6,007 nucleotides of DNA, from the IMG/VR virus record IMGVR_UViG_2778261536_000003, positions 1 to 6,007 of that record. The stretch is one strand, 5' to 3'. Below are positions 1 through 6,007 of this stretch, in pieces. The notes under the pieces are model-generated. The model saw nothing but the letters and a program-made list of their open reading frames with translations, searched no databases and was not told the DNA's origin. Each line of letters opens with the position of its first letter. The stretch's first letter is position 1. The DNA is from a virus. Lineage: Duplodnaviria > Heunggongvirae > Uroviricota > Caudoviricetes. The position numbers and the translations under genes were made by a program.

Positions 1-47
1 ACCCTTAATCCGCCGCCCCATGTGTTTGTTGTGATCCGTTGCTGGCC

Positions 48-707
48 TTAACCAAACGTCTCTTCAGGCCACTGGCTAGCGATAACTTTCCCTACAACGG
101 AACAGCTATCATTGCATGGGATCATTGGATATTGCGGGTTTAGTGGCTGTAGGAACACCTGACCGCTATCCCTGATCAGTTTCTTGAAGGTAAACTCGTC
201 ACCACCAAGTCTGGCTATGCAGAAATCACCTGGCTCAACAGCCTGCTCAGGGTCAACGAGAATTAACACCCCGTCAGGAAAGCTTGGCTTGGAGCCTGTT
301 GGTGCGGTCATGGAATTACCTTCAACTTCAAGCCAGAACGCACAATCACTGGCTTTTTTGGTTGTGCTGACCCATCTCTCCGCATCACCTTTGGTAAAGG
401 TTCTAAGCTCAGGCGAGAACATCCCGGCCTGAACATGAGAAAAAACAGGGTACTCATATTGTTTTTTTACGGGGGCAGATGAGTATTCGCCAACAGGTGA
501 AAATGTACCGTCGTGGTTGAATGAGACGTTATCAATACCAAGGTATTTAAACACCACACCAATCTCGTCAAGAGATGGATGACGAGATCCGCGCAACCAG
601 TGACCAATTCCACCCTGCGTCATACCAAGCTCTTCAGCTAACTTCTCTTGAGTTATGCCGAGCTCTTTCATTCTGGATCTAGCCAGTTCATACCATTTCA
701 TTTTCAT
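48..707 (-). CDS. cI: CI-type prophage repressor: XRE-family HTH N-terminal domain (non-lambda specificity) fused to a lambda-cI-like C-terminal oligomerisation/autocleavage domain
   Basis: Six-frame ORF 48..749 (-). The C-terminal ~140 aa (from [29 protein letters not shown] to WPEETFG) matches lambda cI as I recall it almost residue for residue, including the Ala-Gly cleavage site in VQAGMF and the Ser (EGNSMTAP) and Lys (TFKKLIRD) of the LexA/S24-type catalytic dyad. The N-terminal ~95 aa ([23 protein letters not shown]) does not match lambda. Start is uncertain: ATG at 707 (MKMKWYEL...) sits 7 nt downstream of a minus-strand TAATAA (720..715), consistent with a leaderless PRM-like transcript; the next ATG at 701 has AAGGG 7 nt upstream; ATG 743 and TTG 749 lack an RBS. 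Confidence 0.88.
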
Positions 708-818
708 ACCCTTATTATTACGCTCTGTACTAAAACCATCCATGCACAAGATGTATTTTTTGTTTGCATTCTAAAAGTACATATCGTATTATTGTTTCAT
801 GGTTACTATGGAGGGCAT
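708..818. promoter_or_regulatory. Divergent cI/cro operator-promoter region (OR-like); candidate PR and PRM
   Basis: AT-rich ~110 bp gap between divergent cI and cro. Rightward candidate promoter: TTGCAT (764..769), 17 bp spacer, TATTAT (787..792), about 27 bp upstream of the cro ATG. Leftward candidate -10 TAATAA (720..715, minus strand) abutting the cI ATG at 707, with a weak -35. Short symmetric or mirror elements (gtactaaaa 727..735 / taaaagtac 772..780; atgca 742..746 / tgcat 765..769; ACAAG..TTGT 746..763) could be operator half-sites, but I cannot define three operators confidently. Confidence 0.5.
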
Positions 819-1034
819 ATGAGCAACCTACGAAAATATCGAGAGTCACTGAATATCTCTCAAACAACACTTGCTAAGGCAGTTGGATGCACACAGGGAG
901 CTATCGGACATTGGGAATCTGGTCGTCGCTTCCCAGACCTTAAAACATGCCGTGCTCTTGTTGAGTGCCTAAACAAGTTAGGCGCAAAAGTCAGTCTTGA
1001 TGACGTGTTCCCGCCGGAACACAAAGCCGCTTAA
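819..1034 (+). CDS. cro: Cro-like repressor (71 aa, XRE-family HTH)
   Basis: In-frame ATG at 819 inside track ORF 648..1034, preceded by GGAGGG (810..815). Position divergent from cI. HTH ISQTTLAKAVGCTQGAIGHW shares the recognition motif TQG-IGHW with the adjacent cI (TQGGIGHW), as expected for two proteins reading the same operators. Not lambda Cro-like in sequence. Confidence 0.85.
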   Translation: MSNLRKYRESLNISQTTLAKAVGCTQGAIGHWESGRRFPDLKTCRALVECLNKLGAKVSLDDVFPPEHKAA

Positions 1035-1042
1035 GACATTCT

Positions 1043-1074
1043 AGCTCTTACACATCACAGCCCTGAAAAAGGGC
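1043..1074 (+). promoter_or_regulatory. nutR-like N-utilisation site: boxA-like AGCTCTTA plus boxB hairpin GCCCTGAAAAAGGGC
   Basis: boxB at 1060..1074 (gccctgaaaaagggc) is a perfect 5-bp stem GCCCT/AGGGC with a GAAAA loop, the same as lambda nutR boxB as I recall it. boxA-like agctctta at 1043..1050 lies 9 nt upstream, the same spacing as lambda. Located just downstream of the cro stop, as in lambda. Confidence 0.8.
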
Positions 1075-1150
1075 ATTACCAGAAACAAATCTCTATGGTT
1101 TTGCGTTTCTTTGCGAAGCCAACTCTATCTAATCATTAAGGAAATTATCT

Positions 1151-1432
1151 ATGGGTACTATTGCAACTAAAAGCAAGAAAGCGGCTCGCATCGAGTCAGC
1201 CTTGCTGAACAAACTGGCACTGATGGGGCAGAAGACATTCGCTCGAGCAATGGGGGTTCCTGAATATCAGGTAAGCCGATGGAAGAATGGTTTCTTCTCG
1301 CAGGTAAGCATGATGCTGGCTGTTCTGGAATACGGAATCGAAGACGATGAAATGGCTGAGCTGACTAAGCGGCTTGCCAATTACCTGACAAAAGAAAAAG
1401 CCCCGAAGAACGGCGAATTCTTCGAGGCCTGA
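1151..1432 (+). CDS. cII: CII-like transcriptional activator (lysogeny establishment)
   Basis: 93 aa ORF with RBS AAGGA (1138..1142). Clear similarity to lambda CII in the core (RIESALLNK / SRWK / SMMLAVLEYGIEDDEMA versus lambda EALRIESALLNK / SRWKRDWIPKFSMLLAVLEWGVVDDDMA). Position between cro and O. Confidence 0.85.
   Translation: MGTIATKSKKAARIESALLNKLALMGQKTFARAMGVPEYQVSRWKNGFFSQVSMMLAVLEYGIEDDEMAELTKRLANYLTKEKAPKNGEFFEA
1163..1176 (-). promoter_or_regulatory. Candidate CII binding site (TTGC-N6-TTGC) of a leftward PRE-like promoter
   Basis: Plus strand gcaactaaaagcaa equals minus strand TTGCTTTTAGTTGC, the CII recognition repeat TTGC-N6-TTGC. It lies in the first codons of cII on the opposite strand, the same place as lambda PRE, and is oriented to transcribe toward cro/cI. 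Confidence 0.6.
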
Positions 1433-1466
1433 TGTAGAAAGACTGGATCAATCCACAGGAGTCATT

Positions 1467-2312
1467 ATGACAAATACAGCAAAAATACTCAACTTCGGCA
1501 GAGGTAACTTTGCCGAACAGGAGCGAAGAGTGGCTGATATCGATGATGGTTACACCAGATTCGCTAACGAGCTGCTGGAAGCTATCGCAAGTGCCGATTT
1601 AACCGCTCGCCAGTTGAAAGTTATGCTGGCCTACGTCCGGAAAACATATGGATTCAATAAGAAAACAGATCGAATAGCCGATGAGCAAATTTCTCAGTTA
1701 ACAGGACTGTCAAGGCAGAATGTTAACAAGGCTAAAAAAGAACTGATTTCAATGAATTGCCTGTTTATGGATGGAAATCAAATCGGTGTAAACAGGGAGG
1801 TATCTGCGTGGCAATTCAGCAAGTGTCTCCAAGTTAGCAACTTTGTCTCGAAGTTAGAGACAAAAAATGTCTCCAAATTAGAGACACTCAATGTCTCGAA
1901 GTTAGAGACACACAAAAGACATTCTTTAAAGACAAAAGAAAATATTAATAAACCCCCTATATCCCCCAAAAAAGTTTCTCAGAAGTTCGACCCGCTAGAA
2001 ACAGAGTTGCCTGATTGGTTATCAGCAGAAACATGGTTGTCGTGGGTTACCTATCGCAAGGAGATAGGTAAGTCGATCAAGTCTAAGCAAAGTGTCACTC
2101 AGGCTATCAACGTTCTAAGCAGAAGTCTGGAGAAGGGATATACACCTGAAGAAATTATAAACCAGAGCATCGCCAGTGGTTGGCAGGGGATTTTTGAACC
2201 CAAGACTCCAAAGGGGAAATCTCAACCGAGGCCGCAGCAGCGAGCTATGCAGGAAAACTTTACCGCCAAAGATTACGGGCAAACTGAAATGCCTTCATGG
2301 GCGCAGGAGTGA
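1467..2312 (+). CDS. O: Replication initiator O (lambda O-like N-terminal origin-binding domain; divergent C-terminal domain)
   Basis: 281 aa ORF with RBS AGGAG. N-terminus MTNTAKILNFGRGNFAEQERRVADIDDGY is very close to lambda O (MTNTAKILNFGRGNFAGQERNVADLDDGY as recalled). The gene contains the iteron array and AT-rich tract typical of ori-lambda. The C-terminal ~110 aa does not resemble the lambda O P-binding domain as I recall it. Confidence 0.9.
   Translation: MTNTAKILNFGRGNFAEQERRVADIDDGYTRFANELLEAIASADLTARQLKVMLAYVRKTYGFNKKTDRIADEQISQLTGLSRQNVNKAKKELISMNCLFMDGNQIGVNREVSAWQFSKCLQVSNFVSKLETKNVSKLETLNVSKLETHKRHSLKTKENINKPPISPKKVSQKFDPLETELPDWLSAETWLSWVTYRKEIGKSIKSKQSVTQAINVLSRSLEKGYTPEEIINQSIASGWQGIFEPKTPKGKSQPRPQQRAMQENFTAKDYGQTEMPSWAQE
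1824..1910. repeat. Origin iterons: four ~19-bp dyad-symmetric repeats (TGTCTC-N7-GAGACA) at 20-24 bp spacing inside O
   Basis: Seen directly: 1824..1842 tgtctccaagttagcaact (degenerate), 1844..1862 tgtctcgaagttagagaca, 1868..1886 tgtctccaaattagagaca, 1892..1910 tgtctcgaagttagagaca. They encode the repeated peptide VSKLET in the O linker. Same architecture as ori-lambda, but the iteron sequence differs from the lambda iteron. Confidence 0.85.
1911..1975. other. AT-rich DNA-unwinding region of the replication origin
   Basis: Immediately 3' of the iterons: cacaaaagacattctttaaagacaaaagaaaatattaataaaccccctatatcccccaaaaaag. A-tracts and low GC match the AT-rich unwinding element of lambdoid origins. 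Confidence 0.65.
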
Positions 2313-2314
2313 AT

Positions 2315-3208
2315 ATGAATACGACAAATGGTTACAATCTGGCACTGCAAAGGCAACTTGTAGACTCAAAAATCAATGACATTTCTGATCTGAAACAGAA
2401 ACTTGAGTTTAGCAAAATTGGATCAGCATCAGATGGAATGTCAGTTACCAGCACAGTGGAAGAGTGCGAGAAACACGGTAAATATACTTCCTATGAGAAA
2501 TATCTGACCATCTCAGGAAAAAGAATTACTTCAAGTAAATCTGAGTGCCCACAGTGCCTTGAGGAGAAAATTCGTAAGAAAGAGATTGAACGTGAGCAGG
2601 CAGAACAAAGAGCAAGACAATCAAAAATTGAATATTTGTTGAATTCTCTCAATATTCCAGAGAGGTTCAAAAATTGCACTCTTCAGAATTATGAGCCTGT
2701 TAACGATGATGCAAAGCGAGTTCTTAAGGTATGCCAGGCATATGCCAGTAAGTGGCCTGAACGCCTTCAAAAAGGTGGCGGACTGGTCATGTGTGGTAAG
2801 CCTGGAACTGGAAAGAACCACCTTGCACTGGCTATCGCTAGGCACGCCATTATCGAGCATCAAAGCTCTGTGATATTTACCACTGCGTTGAAAATTGCCA
2901 GAGAGTACAAATCAACATGGTCTAAGGCCGCAACCAGAACTGAAGAAGAAGTCATTAGGCAATTTACGCATCCTGACTTGTTAATAATCGATGAGGTTGG
3001 CGTGCAGTTCGGCAGTGATGCTGAAAAGCTAATCATGTTCGAAATTATCAACACCAGATATGAATACATGAAGCCAACAATCCTGATTAGTAATCAGAGC
3101 AAAGATGAACTGTCTGCATTCATTGGTGAGCGTGTTATTGACAGGATGAATGATGGCGGCGGGTGCACTCTTGCGTTTACATGGGATAGTTACAGGAGCA
3201 GATCGTGA
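2315..3208 (+). CDS. DnaC-type AAA+ helicase loader (phage replication protein replacing lambda P)
   Basis: ATG at 2315 with AGGAG (2305..2309), 2 nt after the O stop. The C-terminal domain closely resembles E. coli DnaC as I recall it: Walker A GKPGTGKNHLALAIA, Walker B DLLIIDEVG, and C-terminal WDSYRSRS. The N-terminal ~120 aa is distinct, with C-x2-H ... C-x2-C (CEKHG...CPQC) and a charged coiled-coil-like stretch (EEKIRKKEIEREQAEQRARQSK). Confidence 0.9.
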   Translation: MNTTNGYNLALQRQLVDSKINDISDLKQKLEFSKIGSASDGMSVTSTVEECEKHGKYTSYEKYLTISGKRITSSKSECPQCLEEKIRKKEIEREQAEQRARQSKIEYLLNSLNIPERFKNCTLQNYEPVNDDAKRVLKVCQAYASKWPERLQKGGGLVMCGKPGTGKNHLALAIARHAIIEHQSSVIFTTALKIAREYKSTWSKAATRTEEEVIRQFTHPDLLIIDEVGVQFGSDAEKLIMFEIINTRYEYMKPTILISNQSKDELSAFIGERVIDRMNDGGGCTLAFTWDSYRSRS

Positions 3209-3495
3209 CTGGAAAAGAAATCATCCTGGAATATCTGAAAACTCATGAACAATTCTCCCCACATGAATTAGCACTGATCACAGGAATACCAAATAACAGA
3301 ATCGCTCAAGCAGCAAGGCATATGGTGAAACAAGGGCATTTGAGTGTTGTTGAGCGTAAGTGGAAGACGGTTATTTATGCAAAACGCAAAGTGAAGAAGG
3401 AGCCAATTAAAAGAAATCCAGATGGTACTGGGTGGGGATGTGCAAATCCAATGACGGCGTTTATTAATAGGGCGCTTATGGAGGTAAGGCAATGA
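3205..3495 (+). CDS. Small basic protein with predicted winged-HTH DNA-binding fold, function unknown
   Basis: 96 aa ORF with GTG start overlapping the loader stop (GTGA) and AGGAG at 3194..3198. Motif SPHELALITGIPNNRIAQAARHMVKQGHL looks like a wHTH followed by a Lys/Arg-rich tail. Sits between the replication genes and tR2, where lambda has ren. I do not recognise it as a named family. Confidence 0.55.
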   Translation: MTGKEIILEYLKTHEQFSPHELALITGIPNNRIAQAARHMVKQGHLSVVERKWKTVIYAKRKVKKEPIKRNPDGTGWGCANPMTAFINRALMEVRQ

Positions 3496-3520
3496 CCATC
3501 TACATCACTGAGCTAATAAC

Positions 3521-3552
3521 AGGCCTGCTGGTAATCGCAGGCCTTTTTATTT
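3521..3552 (+). terminator. Intrinsic terminator (tR2-like)
   Basis: Perfect 8-bp stem aggcctgc (3521..3528) / gcaggcct (3537..3544), 8-nt loop tggtaatc, followed by ttttattt. Sequence and position (just before ninB) match lambda tR2 as I recall it. Confidence 0.85.
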
Positions 3553-3568
3553 GGGGGAGAGGGAAGTC

Positions 3569-4009
3569 ATGAAAAAACTAACCTTTGAAATTCGATCTCC
3601 GGCACATCAGCAAAACGCTATTCACGCGGTACAGCAAATTCTTCCAGACCCAACCAAACCAATCGTAGTAACCATTCAGGAACGCAACCGCAGCTTAGAC
3701 CAGAATCGAAAGCTTTGGGCTTGCCTTGGTGACGTCTCTCGTCAGGTTGAATGGCATGGTCGCTGGCTGGATGCAGAAAGCTGGAAGTGTGTGTTTACCG
3801 CAGCATTAAAGCAGCAGGATGTTGTTCCTAACCTTGCCGGGAATGGCTTTGTGGTAATAGGCCAGTCAACCAGCAGGATGCGTGTAGGCGAATTTGCGGA
3901 GCTATTAGAGCTTATACAGGCATTCGGTACAGAGCGTGGCGTTAAGTGGTCAGACGAAGCGAGACTGGCTCTGGAGTGGAAAGCGAGATGGGGAGACAGG
4001 GCGGCATGA
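3569..4009 (+). CDS. ninB: NinB (Orf) recombination mediator
   Basis: 146 aa from the ATG at 3569 (track ORF 3551.. starts at an upstream TTG). Sequence [31 protein letters not shown]... appears essentially identical to lambda NinB as recalled. G-rich RBS gggggagaggg upstream. Confidence 0.92.
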
Positions 4010-4188
4010 GACGACAGCGACGAAGTATCACCGACATCATCTGCGAAAACTGCAAATACCTTCCAACGAAACGCTCCAGAAATAAACGCAAGCCAATCCC
4101 AAAAGAATCTGACGTAAAAACCTTCAATTACACGGCTCACCTGTGGGATATCCGGTGGCTTAGAGAACGTGCGAGGCATACAAGGTGA
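4006..4188 (+). CDS. ninE: NinE (60 aa)
   Basis: ATG at 4006 overlaps the ninB stop (ATGA). The 60-aa product [30 protein letters not shown]... matches lambda NinE (orf60) as recalled. Track ORF 3946..4188 is an upstream extension of the same frame. Confidence 0.85.
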
Positions 4189-4355
4189 TTGACCCAAATC
4201 GAAGTTATGAACAAGAAAGCGTCGAGCGAGCTTTAACGTGCGCTAACTGCGGTCAGAAGCTGCATGTGCTGGAAGTTCACGTGTGCTCCGATTGCTGCGC
4301 AGAGCTGATGAGCGATCCGAATAGCTCAATGTACGAGGAAGAAGACGATGAATGA
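4185..4355 (+). CDS. ninF: NinF (56 aa, Cys-rich putative zinc-binding protein); not present in the supplied ORF track
   Basis: GTG at 4185 overlaps the ninE stop (GTGA), with GAGG 8 nt upstream. My translation is [56 protein letters not shown], stop at 4353..4355. It resembles lambda NinF (orf56) as recalled and has CxxC ... CxxCC. It fills an otherwise unexplained gap in a translationally coupled operon. Confidence 0.7.
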
Positions 4356-5070
4356 GTTAATAAATGGCAATGCCATCAAAATGACAAGCATTGAAATCGC
4401 TGAGTTGGTGGGTAAGCGTCATGACAATGTGAAACGTACCATCGAAACGCTGGCTAAAAATGGTGTTATCCGGCTTCCTCAAATTGAGGTTTCCGAAAGA
4501 ATCAATAACTTAGGGTTCAATGTTCAGTACGAGCATTACGTCTTCGAGGGCGAACAAGGTAAGCGAGATAGTATTGTTGTTGTTGCCCAGTTGTCGCCAG
4601 AGTTCACCGCTCGCCTTGTTGACCGCTGGCGAGAGCTTGAAGAAGCTGCGGTTAATATCCCCAAAACGCTACCGGAAGCGTTGCGCCTTGCTGCTGACCT
4701 TGCTGAGCAGAAAATGCAACTGGAAAACCAGCTCGCAATTGCCGCACCTAAAGTTGAGTTTGCCGATCGAGTTGGCGAGGCCAGTGGAATTTTGATTGGA
4801 AACTTTGCAAAGGTTGTTGGTATTGGTCCAAACAAACTGTTTGCGTGGATGCGCGATCACAAAATCCTTATTGCTTCAGGTGCCCGGCGCAATGTGCCAA
4901 TGCAGGAATATATGGAGCGCGGCTATTTCACAGTGAAAGAAACAGCAGTCAATACAAATCACGGAATACAGATATCGTTCACCACAAAAATCACCGGGCG
5001 TGGTCAACAGTGGCTGACCAGAAAGCTGCTCGATAACGGAATGCTGAAAGTAACAGGGGAGGCTGCTTAA
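4348..5070 (+). CDS. Phage regulatory protein with Rha-like N-terminal domain and KilA-C/ANT (antirepressor-type) C-terminal domain
   Basis: 240 aa ORF with RBS GAGGA, start overlapping the ninF stop. N-terminus (NAIKMTSIEIAELVGKRHDNVKRTIETL) looks like the phage Rha DNA-binding domain; C-terminus (APKVEFADRVGEASGILIGNFAKVVGIGPNKLFAWMRDHKILIASG) looks like the ANT/KilAC domain. Family assignment is from memory of the domain signatures, not from a search. Confidence 0.78.
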   Translation: MNELINGNAIKMTSIEIAELVGKRHDNVKRTIETLAKNGVIRLPQIEVSERINNLGFNVQYEHYVFEGEQGKRDSIVVVAQLSPEFTARLVDRWRELEEAAVNIPKTLPEALRLAADLAEQKMQLENQLAIAAPKVEFADRVGEASGILIGNFAKVVGIGPNKLFAWMRDHKILIASGARRNVPMQEYMERGYFTVKETAVNTNHGIQISFTTKITGRGQQWLTRKLLDNGMLKVTGEAA

Positions 5071-5360
5071 TGGCTAACCTACGCAAAGAAGCGCGCGGCA
5101 GAGAATGCCAGGTACGTATTTACGGCGTATGCAATGGCAACCCTGAAACTACAGTTCTGGCACATTACCGGATGGCTGGAATTTGCGGAACGGGAATGAA
5201 GCCTGACGACCTGATCGGTGCATGGGCTTGTAGTGACTGCCACGCGGAGATCGACCGACGCACAAGGATTCTCGACAACAAAGACGCCAGACTTTACCAC
5301 CTCGAAGGCGTGATCAGGACGCAGGCGGTATTGCTGAAGGAGGGGAAGATTAAGCCATGA
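5070..5360 (+). CDS. ybcO: YbcO-like DUF1364 protein (putative Zn-dependent nuclease)
   Basis: 96 aa; start overlaps the upstream stop (TAATG). MANLRKEARGRECQVRIYGVCNGNPETTVLAH...CSDCHAEIDRRT resembles E. coli DLP12 YbcO as recalled, with conserved Cys/His. Lies immediately upstream of rusA, as in DLP12. Confidence 0.8.
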   Translation: MANLRKEARGRECQVRIYGVCNGNPETTVLAHYRMAGICGTGMKPDDLIGAWACSDCHAEIDRRTRILDNKDARLYHLEGVIRTQAVLLKEGKIKP

Positions 5361-5719
5361 ACGAATATCAGTTTGTGCTTCCATACCCGCCGTCGGTGAA
5401 TACCTACTGGCGAAGACGGGGAAGCCAATACTACATCAGCGATAAAGGCCAGAAATACCGAAAAGACGTTCAGCAAATCATCCGCCAACTTAAGTTAGAC
5501 ATTTTCACCAAATCACGACTCCGCATCAAAGTCATCGCAGACGTTCCAGACTCCCGCCGCCGCGACCTCGATAACATCCTGAAAGGTTTACTCGACTCCC
5601 TTATCCACGCCGGATTTGCGGAAGACGACGAGCAATTCGATGACATTCGCGTAATTCGTGGTGTGAAAGTACCAGGCGGACGGCTTGGAATAAAAATCAC
5701 CGAACTGGAGAACGTATGA
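5357..5719 (+). CDS. rusA: RusA Holliday-junction resolvase
   Basis: 120 aa; start overlaps the ybcO stop (ATGA). Similar to E. coli RusA as recalled ([15 protein letters not shown] versus [34 protein letters not shown] versus [31 protein letters not shown] versus GGRLELTITEM). Confidence 0.9.
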   Translation: [120 protein letters not shown]

Positions 5720-5904
5720 ACGCCACAATTCAAACGATACCAGAGCTTCTTATCCAGACACGAGGCAATCAGACCGAAGTGGCGAGGATGCTTTCCTGCG
5801 CAAGAGGAACAGTGCTCAAGTACAACCGAGACAGCAAAGGCGAGCGTCACGTAATAGTTAACGGCGTCCTGATGGTCAAACAGGGCAAGAGGGGAAGACC
5901 ATGA
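5716..5904 (+). CDS. ninH: NinH-like small DNA-binding protein
   Basis: 62 aa; start overlaps the rusA stop (ATGA). TIPELLIQTRGNQTEVARMLSCARGTVLKYNRDSKGERHVIVNGVLMV resembles lambda NinH (TIPDMLVEAYGNQTEVARRLKCSRGTVRKYVDDKDGKMHAIVNDVLMV as recalled). Confidence 0.85.
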   Translation: MNATIQTIPELLIQTRGNQTEVARMLSCARGTVLKYNRDSKGERHVIVNGVLMVKQGKRGRP

Positions 5905-6007
5905 GACTCGAAAGCGTAGCTAAATTTCACTCGCCAAAAAGCCCGATGATGAGCGACTCACCACGGGCCACGGCTTCTGACTCTCTTTCCGGTACTGATG
6001 TGATGGC
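5901..6007 (+). CDS. Q: Late-gene antiterminator Q, lambda type (5' partial; continues beyond the window)
   Basis: ATG at 5901 overlaps the ninH stop (ATGA). The translated N-terminus MRLESVAKFHSPKSPMMSDSPRATASDSLSGTDVM appears identical to lambda Q as recalled. Runs off the right edge. Confidence 0.9.
   Translation, partial: MRLESVAKFHSPKSPMMSDSPRATASDSLSGTDVM

Follow-up and report, generated by a model that had tools for sequence, protein, structure and literature searches.

The lambdoid immunity cassette is exchangeable through flanking homology, as known for 434 and P22 and for the laboratory hybrids lambda imm434 and lambda imm21. In each of 434 and P22, Cro and the N-domain of the repressor are HTH_3 paralogues acting on the same operators, and the repressor C-terminal domains (CTDs) are only distantly similar to that of lambda. 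For the Shiga-toxin (Stx) phage VT2-Sa, Fattah et al. [quoted passage not shown] Stx-phage repressors of this type have been called 'Clade I' and are 61% identical overall to lambda CI (PMC8951638).

We analyzed a window of 6,007 nt from a virus of the Caudoviricetes (IMG/VR record IMGVR_UViG_2778261536_000003, positions 1 to 6,007). With a probability of roughly 90%, the region containing its cI and cro genes is the cI-OR-cro immunity switch of a mosaic lambdoid E. coli prophage or phage of the VT2-Sakai/Stx1-converting-phage type. The hybrid repressor module is already known, since this switch type, which is common in E. coli, was described in Stx phages around 2000. The same hybrid cI is carried by VT2-Sakai (NC_000902), the Stx1-converting phage (AP005153), Stx2 II (AP005154), Nil2 (AJ413274), 2851 and the PA series, and the module was found at 93-99% nucleotide identity in VT2-Sakai, the Stx1-converting phage, Stx2 II and Nil2 as well as in over 60 phage records. 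The best overall matches are the non-Stx phages vB_EcoP-683R2, 720R6, Dewey and Louie (98.5-98.8%). From 5426 complete E. coli genomes, 786 contain the module (~14%), Nissle among them. The 'phage repressor pr' of Nissle 1917 (PMC5987069) was considered as a cI of this type and discarded, its primers mapping to the neighboring cII-family gene.

The Clade I group of Stx phages shares with the window the linker junction with a lambda-type CTD, the CI N-domain with its recognition helix, OR1 to OR3 and the same cro (97% nucleotide identity). The OR half-sites are also conserved, with spacings of 26 and 32-33 bp. On the other hand, the OR region of VT2-Sakai-type phages is only 84% identical to that of the window, differing in the operator central bases, the PR -35 and the spacers. 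The CTD of the Stx-phage group belongs to another sub-lineage, that of the window being nearer to lambda. This group has a DnaB-like P protein, whereas the window encodes a DnaC/IstB-like loader, and no Stx-phage neighbors are seen in the window, where nutR is lambda-like. Compared with the lambda immunity group (imm-lambda), only the CTD is lambda-type, with 38-41% nucleotide identity in the N-terminal domain (NTD), OR and cro. Another difference from lambda is that neither rexA nor rexB follows cI.

The cI gene occupies 48..707 on the minus strand (219 aa from ATG 707, as in the ORF list), and a longer minus-strand ORF, 48..749, is also present, the alternative starts being ATG 701, ATG 743 and TTG 749. 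The start is probably ATG 707 or 701. We rejected TTG 749 and ATG 743, the usage of AP005153 and RefSeq, because the operators OR3 and OR2 (716-732 and 742-758) sit within the longer ORF. The short start is also favored because homologues of 217-219 aa from other genera start at the same point, and because the segment 708-743 differs from the Stx1 phage by nonsynonymous changes alone (two radical amino acid changes and no synonymous ones, read by eye). In the corresponding protein, Pfam recognizes HTH_3 (PF01381) at aa 11-58, with E 8.3e-11 and a score of 42 bits (cutoff 23), and Peptidase_S24 (PF00717) at aa 87-209, covering the profile in full (1-116; E 3.9e-28). The closest solved structure found by phmmer is the lambda repressor 3bdn (E 2e-96). 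With its HTH, S24 domain, Ala-Gly pair and Ser/Lys residues, the protein can be assigned to the LexA/lambda-cI family of self-cleaving S24 repressors.

The lambda-type C-terminal module (aa 84-219; 48..458, minus strand) comprises the cleavage-site region and the S24 domain of dimerization and cooperativity. A reading made from the sequence only had regarded this part as nearly residue-identical to lambda cI, and the alignment bears this out: from YEYPVF to the C-terminus 134 of 137 residues are identical, and the sole differences are S139C, M164V and E217D (lambda mature numbering). Over its last 136 residues the protein is 98% identical to positions 101-236 of lambda CI (NP_040628; PDB 3bdn, 1f39, 1kca), the stretch with A111-G112, S149/K192 and the surfaces for dimer formation and cooperativity, common to both proteins. 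By alignment, the codons of Ala94-Gly95 (423..428, minus strand) correspond to the A111-G112 self-cleavage bond of lambda, that of Ser132 (312..314, minus strand) to the S149 nucleophile and that of Lys175 (183..185, minus strand) to the K192 general base. The autocleavage motifs, expected from the sequence-only reading, are all intact after careful alignment, and their positions are invariant across 12 aligned sequences.

The rest of the protein is a non-lambda HTH_3 DNA-binding domain plus linker of the VT2-Sakai type (aa 1-83; 459..707, minus strand). At the nucleotide level it is 38% identical to lambda, and with VT2-Sakai and the Stx1 phage the identity is 94-95%. The translated recognition-helix stretch is identical to that of VT2-Sakai and is not affected by the three substitutions seen from the window to VT2-Sa (D46S, E47D and V61I, numbered from ATG 707). 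The N-terminal ~95 aa had been described as unrelated to lambda. The divergence is confirmed by the 38% identity, but 'unrelated' goes too far, as the fold is the same HTH_3. The phmmer alignment with 3bdn begins at residue 11, and ~12 of the 26 positions of the helix-turn-helix stretch are identical (manual count from the alignment). Judging from these alignments, the domain is a distant homologue of the lambda NTD, from which it differs by lacking the N-terminal arm and by having Gly at the equivalent of Ser45.

These two parts meet at the Gln83/Tyr84 codon boundary (458..459), in the linker, the cleavage site following 10 residues later. Over 52-459 the nucleotide sequence is 94.9% identical to lambda (95.1% over 52-458), and identity then drops to 38% in the NTD, 40% in the operator region and 41.5% in cro. 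The BLAST HSPs against lambda and against the lambda-immunity prophage of strain PE15 both stop at nt 458, and the maximum chi-square breakpoint falls after the same nucleotide (chi2 217.8; 0 of 1000 permutations as high). Plotted along the gene, identity to lambda cI shows this sharp step and no uniform divergence, in agreement with the hybrid proposed beforehand, a repressor with a lambda-type half and a different HTH domain joined in the inter-domain linker. The junction had been placed at nt 460-480, which is correct regarding the domain boundary and a few bases away regarding the position.

Vertical descent of the whole gene together with lambda cI could also be considered, with the CTD under stronger purifying selection and the NTD diverging for a new specificity. 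This would fit the clade CTDs, which keep 76-88% protein identity between genera and are joined to several NTD types, and also some relatives (P0002-P0007) where NTD and CTD diverge together, with ~80-87% identity each. However, nucleotide identity in the window falls from 95% to ~38% within a few bases, and 17 of the 20 CTD nucleotide differences from lambda are synonymous, which indicates a recombinant cI rather than slow evolution, the silent sites being unsaturated while the adjoining DNA is barely alignable. Moreover, the window CTD is nearer to lambda (20 differences) than to the CTDs of other phages that have this NTD (31-32 differences), and the PE15 prophage has the lambda NTD, OR and cro beside the left flank and CTD of the window. 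The abrupt step at 458/459 and the mostly synonymous CTD differences therefore exclude a uniform divergence with a conserved CTD. We consider vertical descent extremely improbable; it is effectively refuted by the synonymous-site pattern. An assembly chimera is also an unlikely explanation for the 95% identity, since the junction is seen again in hundreds of independent genomes.

The PE15 prophage is the natural swap partner or counterpart of the recombinant module. It matches the window in the left flank, in the CTD and again from nt 1442 on, where O and the genes downstream of it lie, and between these matching flanks it contains lambda's own NTD, OR and cro, with 98% nucleotide identity to lambda in cI-cro. 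The CTD segment and the conserved sequence on the right would serve as homology arms, between which a specificity cassette composed of NTD, OR and cro would be swapped. This right-hand sequence corresponds to nutR when compared with lambda and to the oop/O 5' region when compared with both lambda and PE15. The lambda-type nutR (boxA GCTCTTA, boxB GCCCTGAAAAAGGGC; 1044..1076, plus strand) matches lambda 38250-38282, a segment that includes the annotated NutR, in 31 of 33 positions; lambda homology restarts there, on the right side of the immunity cassette. In an Rfam scan covering the full window, no family reached the gathering threshold, oop and nut not being represented. In 434 and P22 and in the imm434 and imm21 hybrids the swap unit is the whole cI-cro, whereas in the window it is NTD-OR-cro, because the left homology arm runs into cI itself.

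The CTD-coding segment has ~92-98% nucleotide identity among the lambdoid phages compared, in which two different N-domains occur. Among related bacteria, CTDs with 76-88% protein identity are joined to at least 2 further N-domain types, and within 120 homologues the lambda-like CTD is paired with at least 4. Further junctions inside the CTD are seen in the CTD polymorphism patterns and in one homologue (P0075), and the patterns suggest that exchange is not confined to the domain boundary. We looked for the direction of exchange in the domain identities and CTD polymorphisms, and none could be assigned because the CTD lineages do not follow the NTD type.

The cro gene (819..1034, plus strand) encodes a 71-aa HTH_3 protein (Pfam E 1.4e-12) and is 97% identical at the nucleotide level to VT2-Sakai cro. 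A cro matching the repressor had been anticipated within 648..1034; the gene is there, although it starts at 819. Cro and the cI NTD share 35% identity over 62 aa (BLASTP, E 5e-13) as well as the recognition motif TQGxIGHW noticed before (CTQGAIGHW in Cro). This similarity indicates that Cro is a paralogue of the cI N-domain, as in 434 and P22, where Cro is an HTH_3 protein paralogous to the N-domain of its own repressor. In contrast with lambda Cro, a member of the lambda Cro family, it is of the all-helical HTH_3 type.

Three operator-like sites are located in the cI-cro gap: OR3-like TATTACGCTCTGTACTA (716..732, PWM score 15.2), OR2-like ATGCACAAGATGTATTT (742..758, score 11.6) and OR1-like AAGTACATATCGTATTA (775..791, score 18.9). 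No other site in the 6 kb window scores >=11.5, with the PWM built from the annotated sites of a homologous phage, which makes these sites an annotation transfer and not an independent discovery. All are homologous to the annotated operators of AP005153 and to OR1-3 of VT2-Sa (PMC10742460 Table S1), the OR3-like site to the annotated OR3 of the Stx1 phage and VT2-Sa, and the OR2-like site to VT2-Sa OR2. The OR1-like site holds one of the 3 TAC-N5-GTA matches of the window, where 0.49 would be expected. The window operators are of the AAGTAC type, while those of lambda are of the TATCACCGC type. Spacing between centers is 33 bp for OR1-OR2 (24 bp in lambda) and 26 bp for OR2-OR3, and a matching OL operator triplet with spacings of 25 and 33 bp was found in relatives. 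The PWM scan revealed no extra operator (>=3 bits) between OR1 and OR2 to account for the 33-bp gap. Lambda-style pairwise cooperativity between OR1 and OR2 is not certain, since the operator spacing is unlike that of lambda.

The consensus scan returned a PR-like promoter as a pattern match (TTTGCA/TTGCAT, spacer of 17-18 nt, TATTAT; 763..792, plus strand), whose spacer and -10 are overlapped by the OR1-like site. The same scan did not report PRM, which was placed from the sequence and from OR2/OR3 geometry alone, with a putative -10 AATAAT (714-719) and a weak -35 TGGATG (737-742; 714..742 as a whole, minus strand). The OR3-like site overlaps this putative -10, and the center of the OR2-like site is at about -43 from the probable PRM start. 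Transcription is predicted to begin near the A of ATG 707, probably generating a leaderless cI mRNA as in lambda. The general layout is also that of lambda, with divergent cI and cro, three operators and OR2 near -42/-43 of PRM.

From these features we infer a switch working as follows. A CI dimer would bind through its HTH_3 N-domain to the three 17-bp sites between cI and cro (approximate consensus AAGTACAnnnnGTACTT) and to three further sites at OL, which lies outside the window together with N, as only 47 nt are present to the left of cI. CI at OR1 would occlude PR, and at OR2, ~-43 from the weak PRM, it would occupy the position where lambda CI activates PRM. The overlap of OR3 with the PRM -10 would lead to negative autoregulation, and Cro, by binding the same sites, would favor lytic growth. 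The lambda-type CTD would supply dimerization and cooperativity between dimers, and its Ser/Lys dyad would cleave the Ala-Gly bond of the repressor itself upon stimulation by RecA; because this CTD is 98% identical to that of lambda, the prophage should be SOS-inducible.

Inducibility would not be expected if the module belonged to a decayed cryptic prophage, either as a non-functional remnant or as a repressor 'fossil' giving superinfection immunity. Many lambdoid prophages of E. coli are defective. The homologous Nissle prophage was reported to be non-inducible (PMC5987069), and in the VT2-Sakai reference record the HTH of cI is interrupted by a stop codon. Nevertheless, cI, cro, cII, O, the DnaC-like gene, ninB, rusA and others are open and full length in the window, where no frameshift or IS element is seen, and imm regions identical or 99.5-99.7% identical are present in the plaque-forming isolates vB_EcoP-683R2 and Louie, and also Dewey. 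We regard a cryptic remnant as quite improbable.

Regarding immunity, homoimmunity with VT2-Sakai-type phages seems likely, with the reservation that the OR region is only 84% identical. As for lambda, the module may not be truly heteroimmune if weak operator cross-binding or mixed dimers or tetramers produce partial cross-immunity. In the account given by PMC10742460, Fattah et al. (2000) reported cross-immunity between lambda and VT2-Sa, which has the immunity type of the window. EMSA showed that lambda CI binds the VT2-Sa operators with an apparent Kd of 3.7-6.4 uM; this is, however, 10-30x weaker than the binding of lambda CI to its own OR1/OL1 when assayed alike, and near its weakest site (PMC10742460). 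The CTD is 98% identical to that of lambda, some half-sites are alike (TATTAC in the window and TATCAC in lambda), and the recognition helices are related, with the Gln44 equivalent and GxG kept, but Gly stands at the Ser45 position and the protein lacks the N-terminal arm seen in lambda CI. In addition, both the window-type module and lambda immunity are present in ~183 of the 5426 complete E. coli genomes, many of which are O157:H7, and for this independent maintenance is the easier fit. Partial cross-immunity appears unlikely to us, and heteroimmunity with lambda, as proposed beforehand, is a putative phenotype.

A related possibility is that the CI proteins of co-resident prophages join in mixed dimers or mixed cooperative tetramers, coupling the stability and induction thresholds of these prophages. 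It is conceivable because the CTD, with its dimer and tetramer interfaces, is 98% identical and both types are co-resident, although we hold it as a tentative and somewhat doubtful proposal.

As a discovery the locus adds little, since the literature and GenBank annotation already include the hybrid repressor with its operators and lambda-like C-terminal half. Its value is to illustrate cleanly, with a natural case, the modular theory of lambdoid evolution: the crossover lies exactly in the inter-domain linker, and therefore a whole SOS-sensing and oligomerization module is reused with different DNA-reading heads. This frames the question of whether repressors with the same CTD and different NTDs interfere with each other in O157:H7 and other polylysogens. 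If mixed CI oligomers are formed, negative dominance, partial cross-immunity or co-induction would result, and the induction of Shiga-toxin phages could be influenced. The shared CTD segment would also be a preferred crossover point for new immunity hybrids in polylysogens.

In the window, cI (48-707, minus strand) encodes a repressor with two parts of different character. Aligned to lambda cI (from NC_001416), the translated minus-strand ORF matches lambda in 134 of 137 residues of its C-terminal part, through to the C-terminus, the differences being S139C, M164V and E217D (lambda numbering). The self-cleavage bond Ala94-Gly95 (nt 423-428; lambda A111-G112), the nucleophile Ser132 (nt 312-314; lambda S149) and the general base Lys175 (nt 183-185; lambda K192) are all kept. 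Both the near-identity and the conservation of these motifs, of which we found no loss, had been proposed by the sequence-only reading. In Pfam, HTH_3 covers aa 11-58 and Peptidase_S24, over its full length, aa 87-209, and the top solved structure is the lambda repressor (3bdn, E 2e-96). From its 98% identity to the lambda C-terminal domain (CTD), CI would be expected to dimerise, to bind cooperatively and to undergo RecA-dependent cleavage. The N-terminal domain (NTD), previously called unrelated to lambda, is instead a distant homologue with the same fold: phmmer aligns it to 3bdn from residue 11, and about 12 of 26 positions of the helix-turn-helix stretch are shared with lambda CI, including the Gln44 equivalent (hand count). 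As judged from sequence, the DNA-reading parts are clearly not those of lambda. Differing from lambda CI, the protein has Gly at the Ser45 equivalent and is devoid of the N-terminal arm.

Nucleotide identity to lambda is 94.9% at 52-459 vs 37.9% in the NTD, 40.2% in the cI-cro gap and 41.5% in cro, and resumes at nutR, right of cro. BLAST alignments to lambda and to the lambda-immunity prophage of E. coli PE15 both end at nt 458. The maximum chi-square scan also places the breakpoint after nt 458 (chi2 217.8, reached in 0 of 1000 permutations), so the junction falls within the linker, at the Gln83/Tyr84 codons and ten residues before the cleavage site. It comes very near the 460-480 first estimated, and identity plotted along the gene falls in a sharp step at nt 458, with no uniform divergence.

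The first reading is confirmed in its observation and supported, with caveats, in its interpretation. The hybrid cI arose by recombination, as had been suggested, on four sequence grounds. Lambda and the window differ at 20 nucleotides of the CTD segment, and 17 of these differences are synonymous; differential selection cannot give such a pattern, with silent sites little diverged beside essentially unalignable DNA. The lambda-like island is also bounded on the left, where homology begins at nt 52, adjoining the stop codon, and comparison with lambda revealed no rexA after cI in the 47-nt left flank. The PE15 prophage (L005, 4001-10253, against window 1-6007) shares this flank, a CTD about 94% identical, and 99.6% identity from nt 1442 on; the blocks in common, which also take in O, the DnaC-like gene and a portion of the nin region, are given as 95-99.6% identical. 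Between them (window 459-1441), the NTD, operators and cro of PE15 are those of lambda itself and its cII region is a different one, and the two constitute a natural immunity-swap pair. In PE15, rexAB is replaced, 3' of cI, by a gene for a YoaK-like small membrane protein and by the toxin-antitoxin pair hicAB.

The CTD polymorphisms do not track the N-domain type, which is one of the four grounds: the CTD of the window differs from that of lambda at 20 positions and from those of VT2-Sakai, the Stx1 phage and Nissle, which have the same N-domain, at 31-32, while a polymorphism patch at 258-294 is common to the PE15 and Stx1 phage CTDs. In a set of 120 database homologues, at least four N-domain types (that of the window, one 52% identical to it, that of lambda itself and one of 212-215 aa) are joined to CTDs sharing 76-88% identity with the window's, and one homologue (P0028) has the window's N-domain type with a 57%-identical CTD. 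An E. coli protein (P0075) is lambda-identical solely from AFWLEVEG onward, so crossovers occur within the CTD too. The CTD segment, shared by varied N-domains, thus acts as a homology arm in exchanges of the NTD-OR-cro specificity cassette.

The module is not new and is an ordinary representative of an immunity type that has been described before. Of 113 phage records matched by the 48-1034 segment, 62 align over at least 80% of the query; identity is about 93% in the Stx1-converting phage, Stx2 II, Nil2, phage 2851, the PA series and YYZ-2008, and 98.5-98.8% in the non-Stx phages vB_EcoP-683R2, 720R6, Dewey and Louie. VT2-Sakai and the Stx1 phage are 99-100% identical across cI-cro. In VT2-Sakai (NC_000902; L004, 4901-5696), an in-frame TAG interrupts the helix-turn-helix of cI (MT*GG for MTQGG), because of which the annotation there splits cI into a 510-nt gene and a 'c1 repressor fragment'; the codon is intact in the Stx1-converting phage, whose record (AP005153) lists a 'CI protein; similar to phage lambda CI' with six operators and promoters. 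Fattah et al. (2000), as cited in PMC10742460, found the VT2-Sa and lambda CI proteins to be highly homologous in the C-terminal part and little so in the N-terminal part, and Stx-phage repressors of this type form 'Clade I', 61% identical overall to lambda CI (PMC8951638). Of 5426 complete E. coli genomes, 786 carry the NTD-OR-cro cassette, among them Nissle 1917, ATCC 25922 and O157:H7 strains, and 1206 carry the lambda-type CTD segment, with up to 3 copies each.

Cro (819-1034; 71 aa, HTH_3) carries the recognition motif of the CI N-domain, as the sequence-only reading had noticed (CTQGAIGHW vs MTQGGIGHW), and the two share 35% identity over 62 residues (E 5e-13). Scanned with a position weight matrix built from the six operators annotated in AP005153, the window has just three sites of at least 11.5 bits, and all are between cI and cro: predicted OR3 (716-732, TATTACGCTCTGTACTA), OR2 (742-758, ATGCACAAGATGTATTT) and OR1 (775-791, AAGTACATATCGTATTA). 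They are homologues of VT2-Sa OR3, OR2 and OR1, whose sequences have been used experimentally (PMC10742460 Table S1), and their approximate consensus, AAGTACAnnnnGTACTT, is unlike the TATCACCGC-type sites of lambda. OR1 overlaps a PR-like promoter (763-792; TTGCAT, 17 nt, TATTAT). The promoter scan did not list PRM; if the cI mRNA started at the A of ATG 707, like lambda's leaderless PRM transcript, AATAAT would fall at -12 to -7, OR3 over the -10 and the OR2 centre at about -43, vs -42 in lambda, from where lambda CI activates PRM, which suggests a PRM geometry at cI. In the close relative vB_EcoP-683R2, three OL sites that match these are 5' of N and overlap a TTGACT-17-TACTAT promoter (read by eye). 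Operator centres are 33 bp apart for OR1-OR2 (24 in lambda), 26 bp for OR2-OR3, 25 bp for OL1-OL2 and 33 bp for OL2-OL3. This asymmetric spacing, unlike that of lambda, is conserved in both sequence variants of the VT2-Sakai immunity type (window 716-791; L003 5348-5422; L002 3440-3514 and 5669-5743).

The sequence-only reading predicted that a lysogen would not be immune to lambda. According to PMC10742460, Fattah et al. (2000) reported cross-immunity of VT2-Sa and lambda. Lambda CI binds VT2-Sa operators at 3.7-6.4 uM, compared with 0.2-0.35 uM for its own OR1 and OL1 (PMC10742460). We consider partial cross-immunity between this module type and lambda unlikely: the distant homology of the N-domain and the retained Gln44 equivalent are in its favor, but the Gly in place of Ser45 and the missing arm argue against it. 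A concatenated query with both cassettes retrieved 1223 genomes in union, against 786 for the window's type and 620 for lambda immunity alone; therefore, about 183 of 5426 E. coli genomes have both, as in O157:H7 PNUSAE147325, where they are in two places. Such cells have two repressors with near-identical oligomerisation domains and different DNA-binding heads, and from these sequences it is plausible that mixed dimers or tetramers form and that recombination occurs at the shared segment, a related idea having been raised in discussion (PMC10742460).

The 6-kb window represents the early-right part of a lambdoid genome, phage or prophage. None of the E. coli genomes matches all of it; the best ones match 70-92% of its length, split into several segments of 95-99% identity, as is typical of lambdoid mosaics. 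After cro come a lambda-type nutR (1044-1076), a cII gene (Phage_CII, 1151-1432) homologous to the CII-family gene of Nissle 1917, and a conserved oop-promoter sequence (1442-1460). The Nissle 'phage repressor (pr)' gene, which is reported to protect K-12 partially against lambda and Stx phages (PMC5987069), was rejected as a cI, the cloning and qPCR primers of that study mapping to the CII-family gene and oop region (window 1151-1460; L006 3170-3535), adjoining the immunity module. An O-like replication gene (Phage_rep_O, 1467-2312) contains four iterons (1821-1915, TGTCTCnAAnTTAGAGACA, 20-24 bp spacing), which encode the repeated VSKLET peptide motif and are followed by an A/T-rich stretch, together the presumed ori. 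Next, a DnaC/IstB-like AAA+ ATPase gene (2315-3208; IstB_IS21, E 1e-18) replaces lambda P and also differs from the DnaB-like helicase of VT2-Sakai, being another module swap, in the replication region. Window 3471-3925 matches the lambda ren/ninB junction at 95.8% identity and includes, just 5' of ninB, a GC-rich hairpin with a T run after it (about 3527-3556); this resembles an intrinsic terminator, presumably at the position of lambda tR2. The nin region, 3' of the DnaC/IstB-like gene, comprises ninB, a KilAC antirepressor-like gene, a DUF1364 gene, rusA and ninH, named after annotated homologous genomes. Its 240-aa KilAC domain ORF (4348-5070) is annotated as a phage antirepressor in homologous genomes and, if it is a real one, could provide a RecA-independent means of inactivating a repressor.
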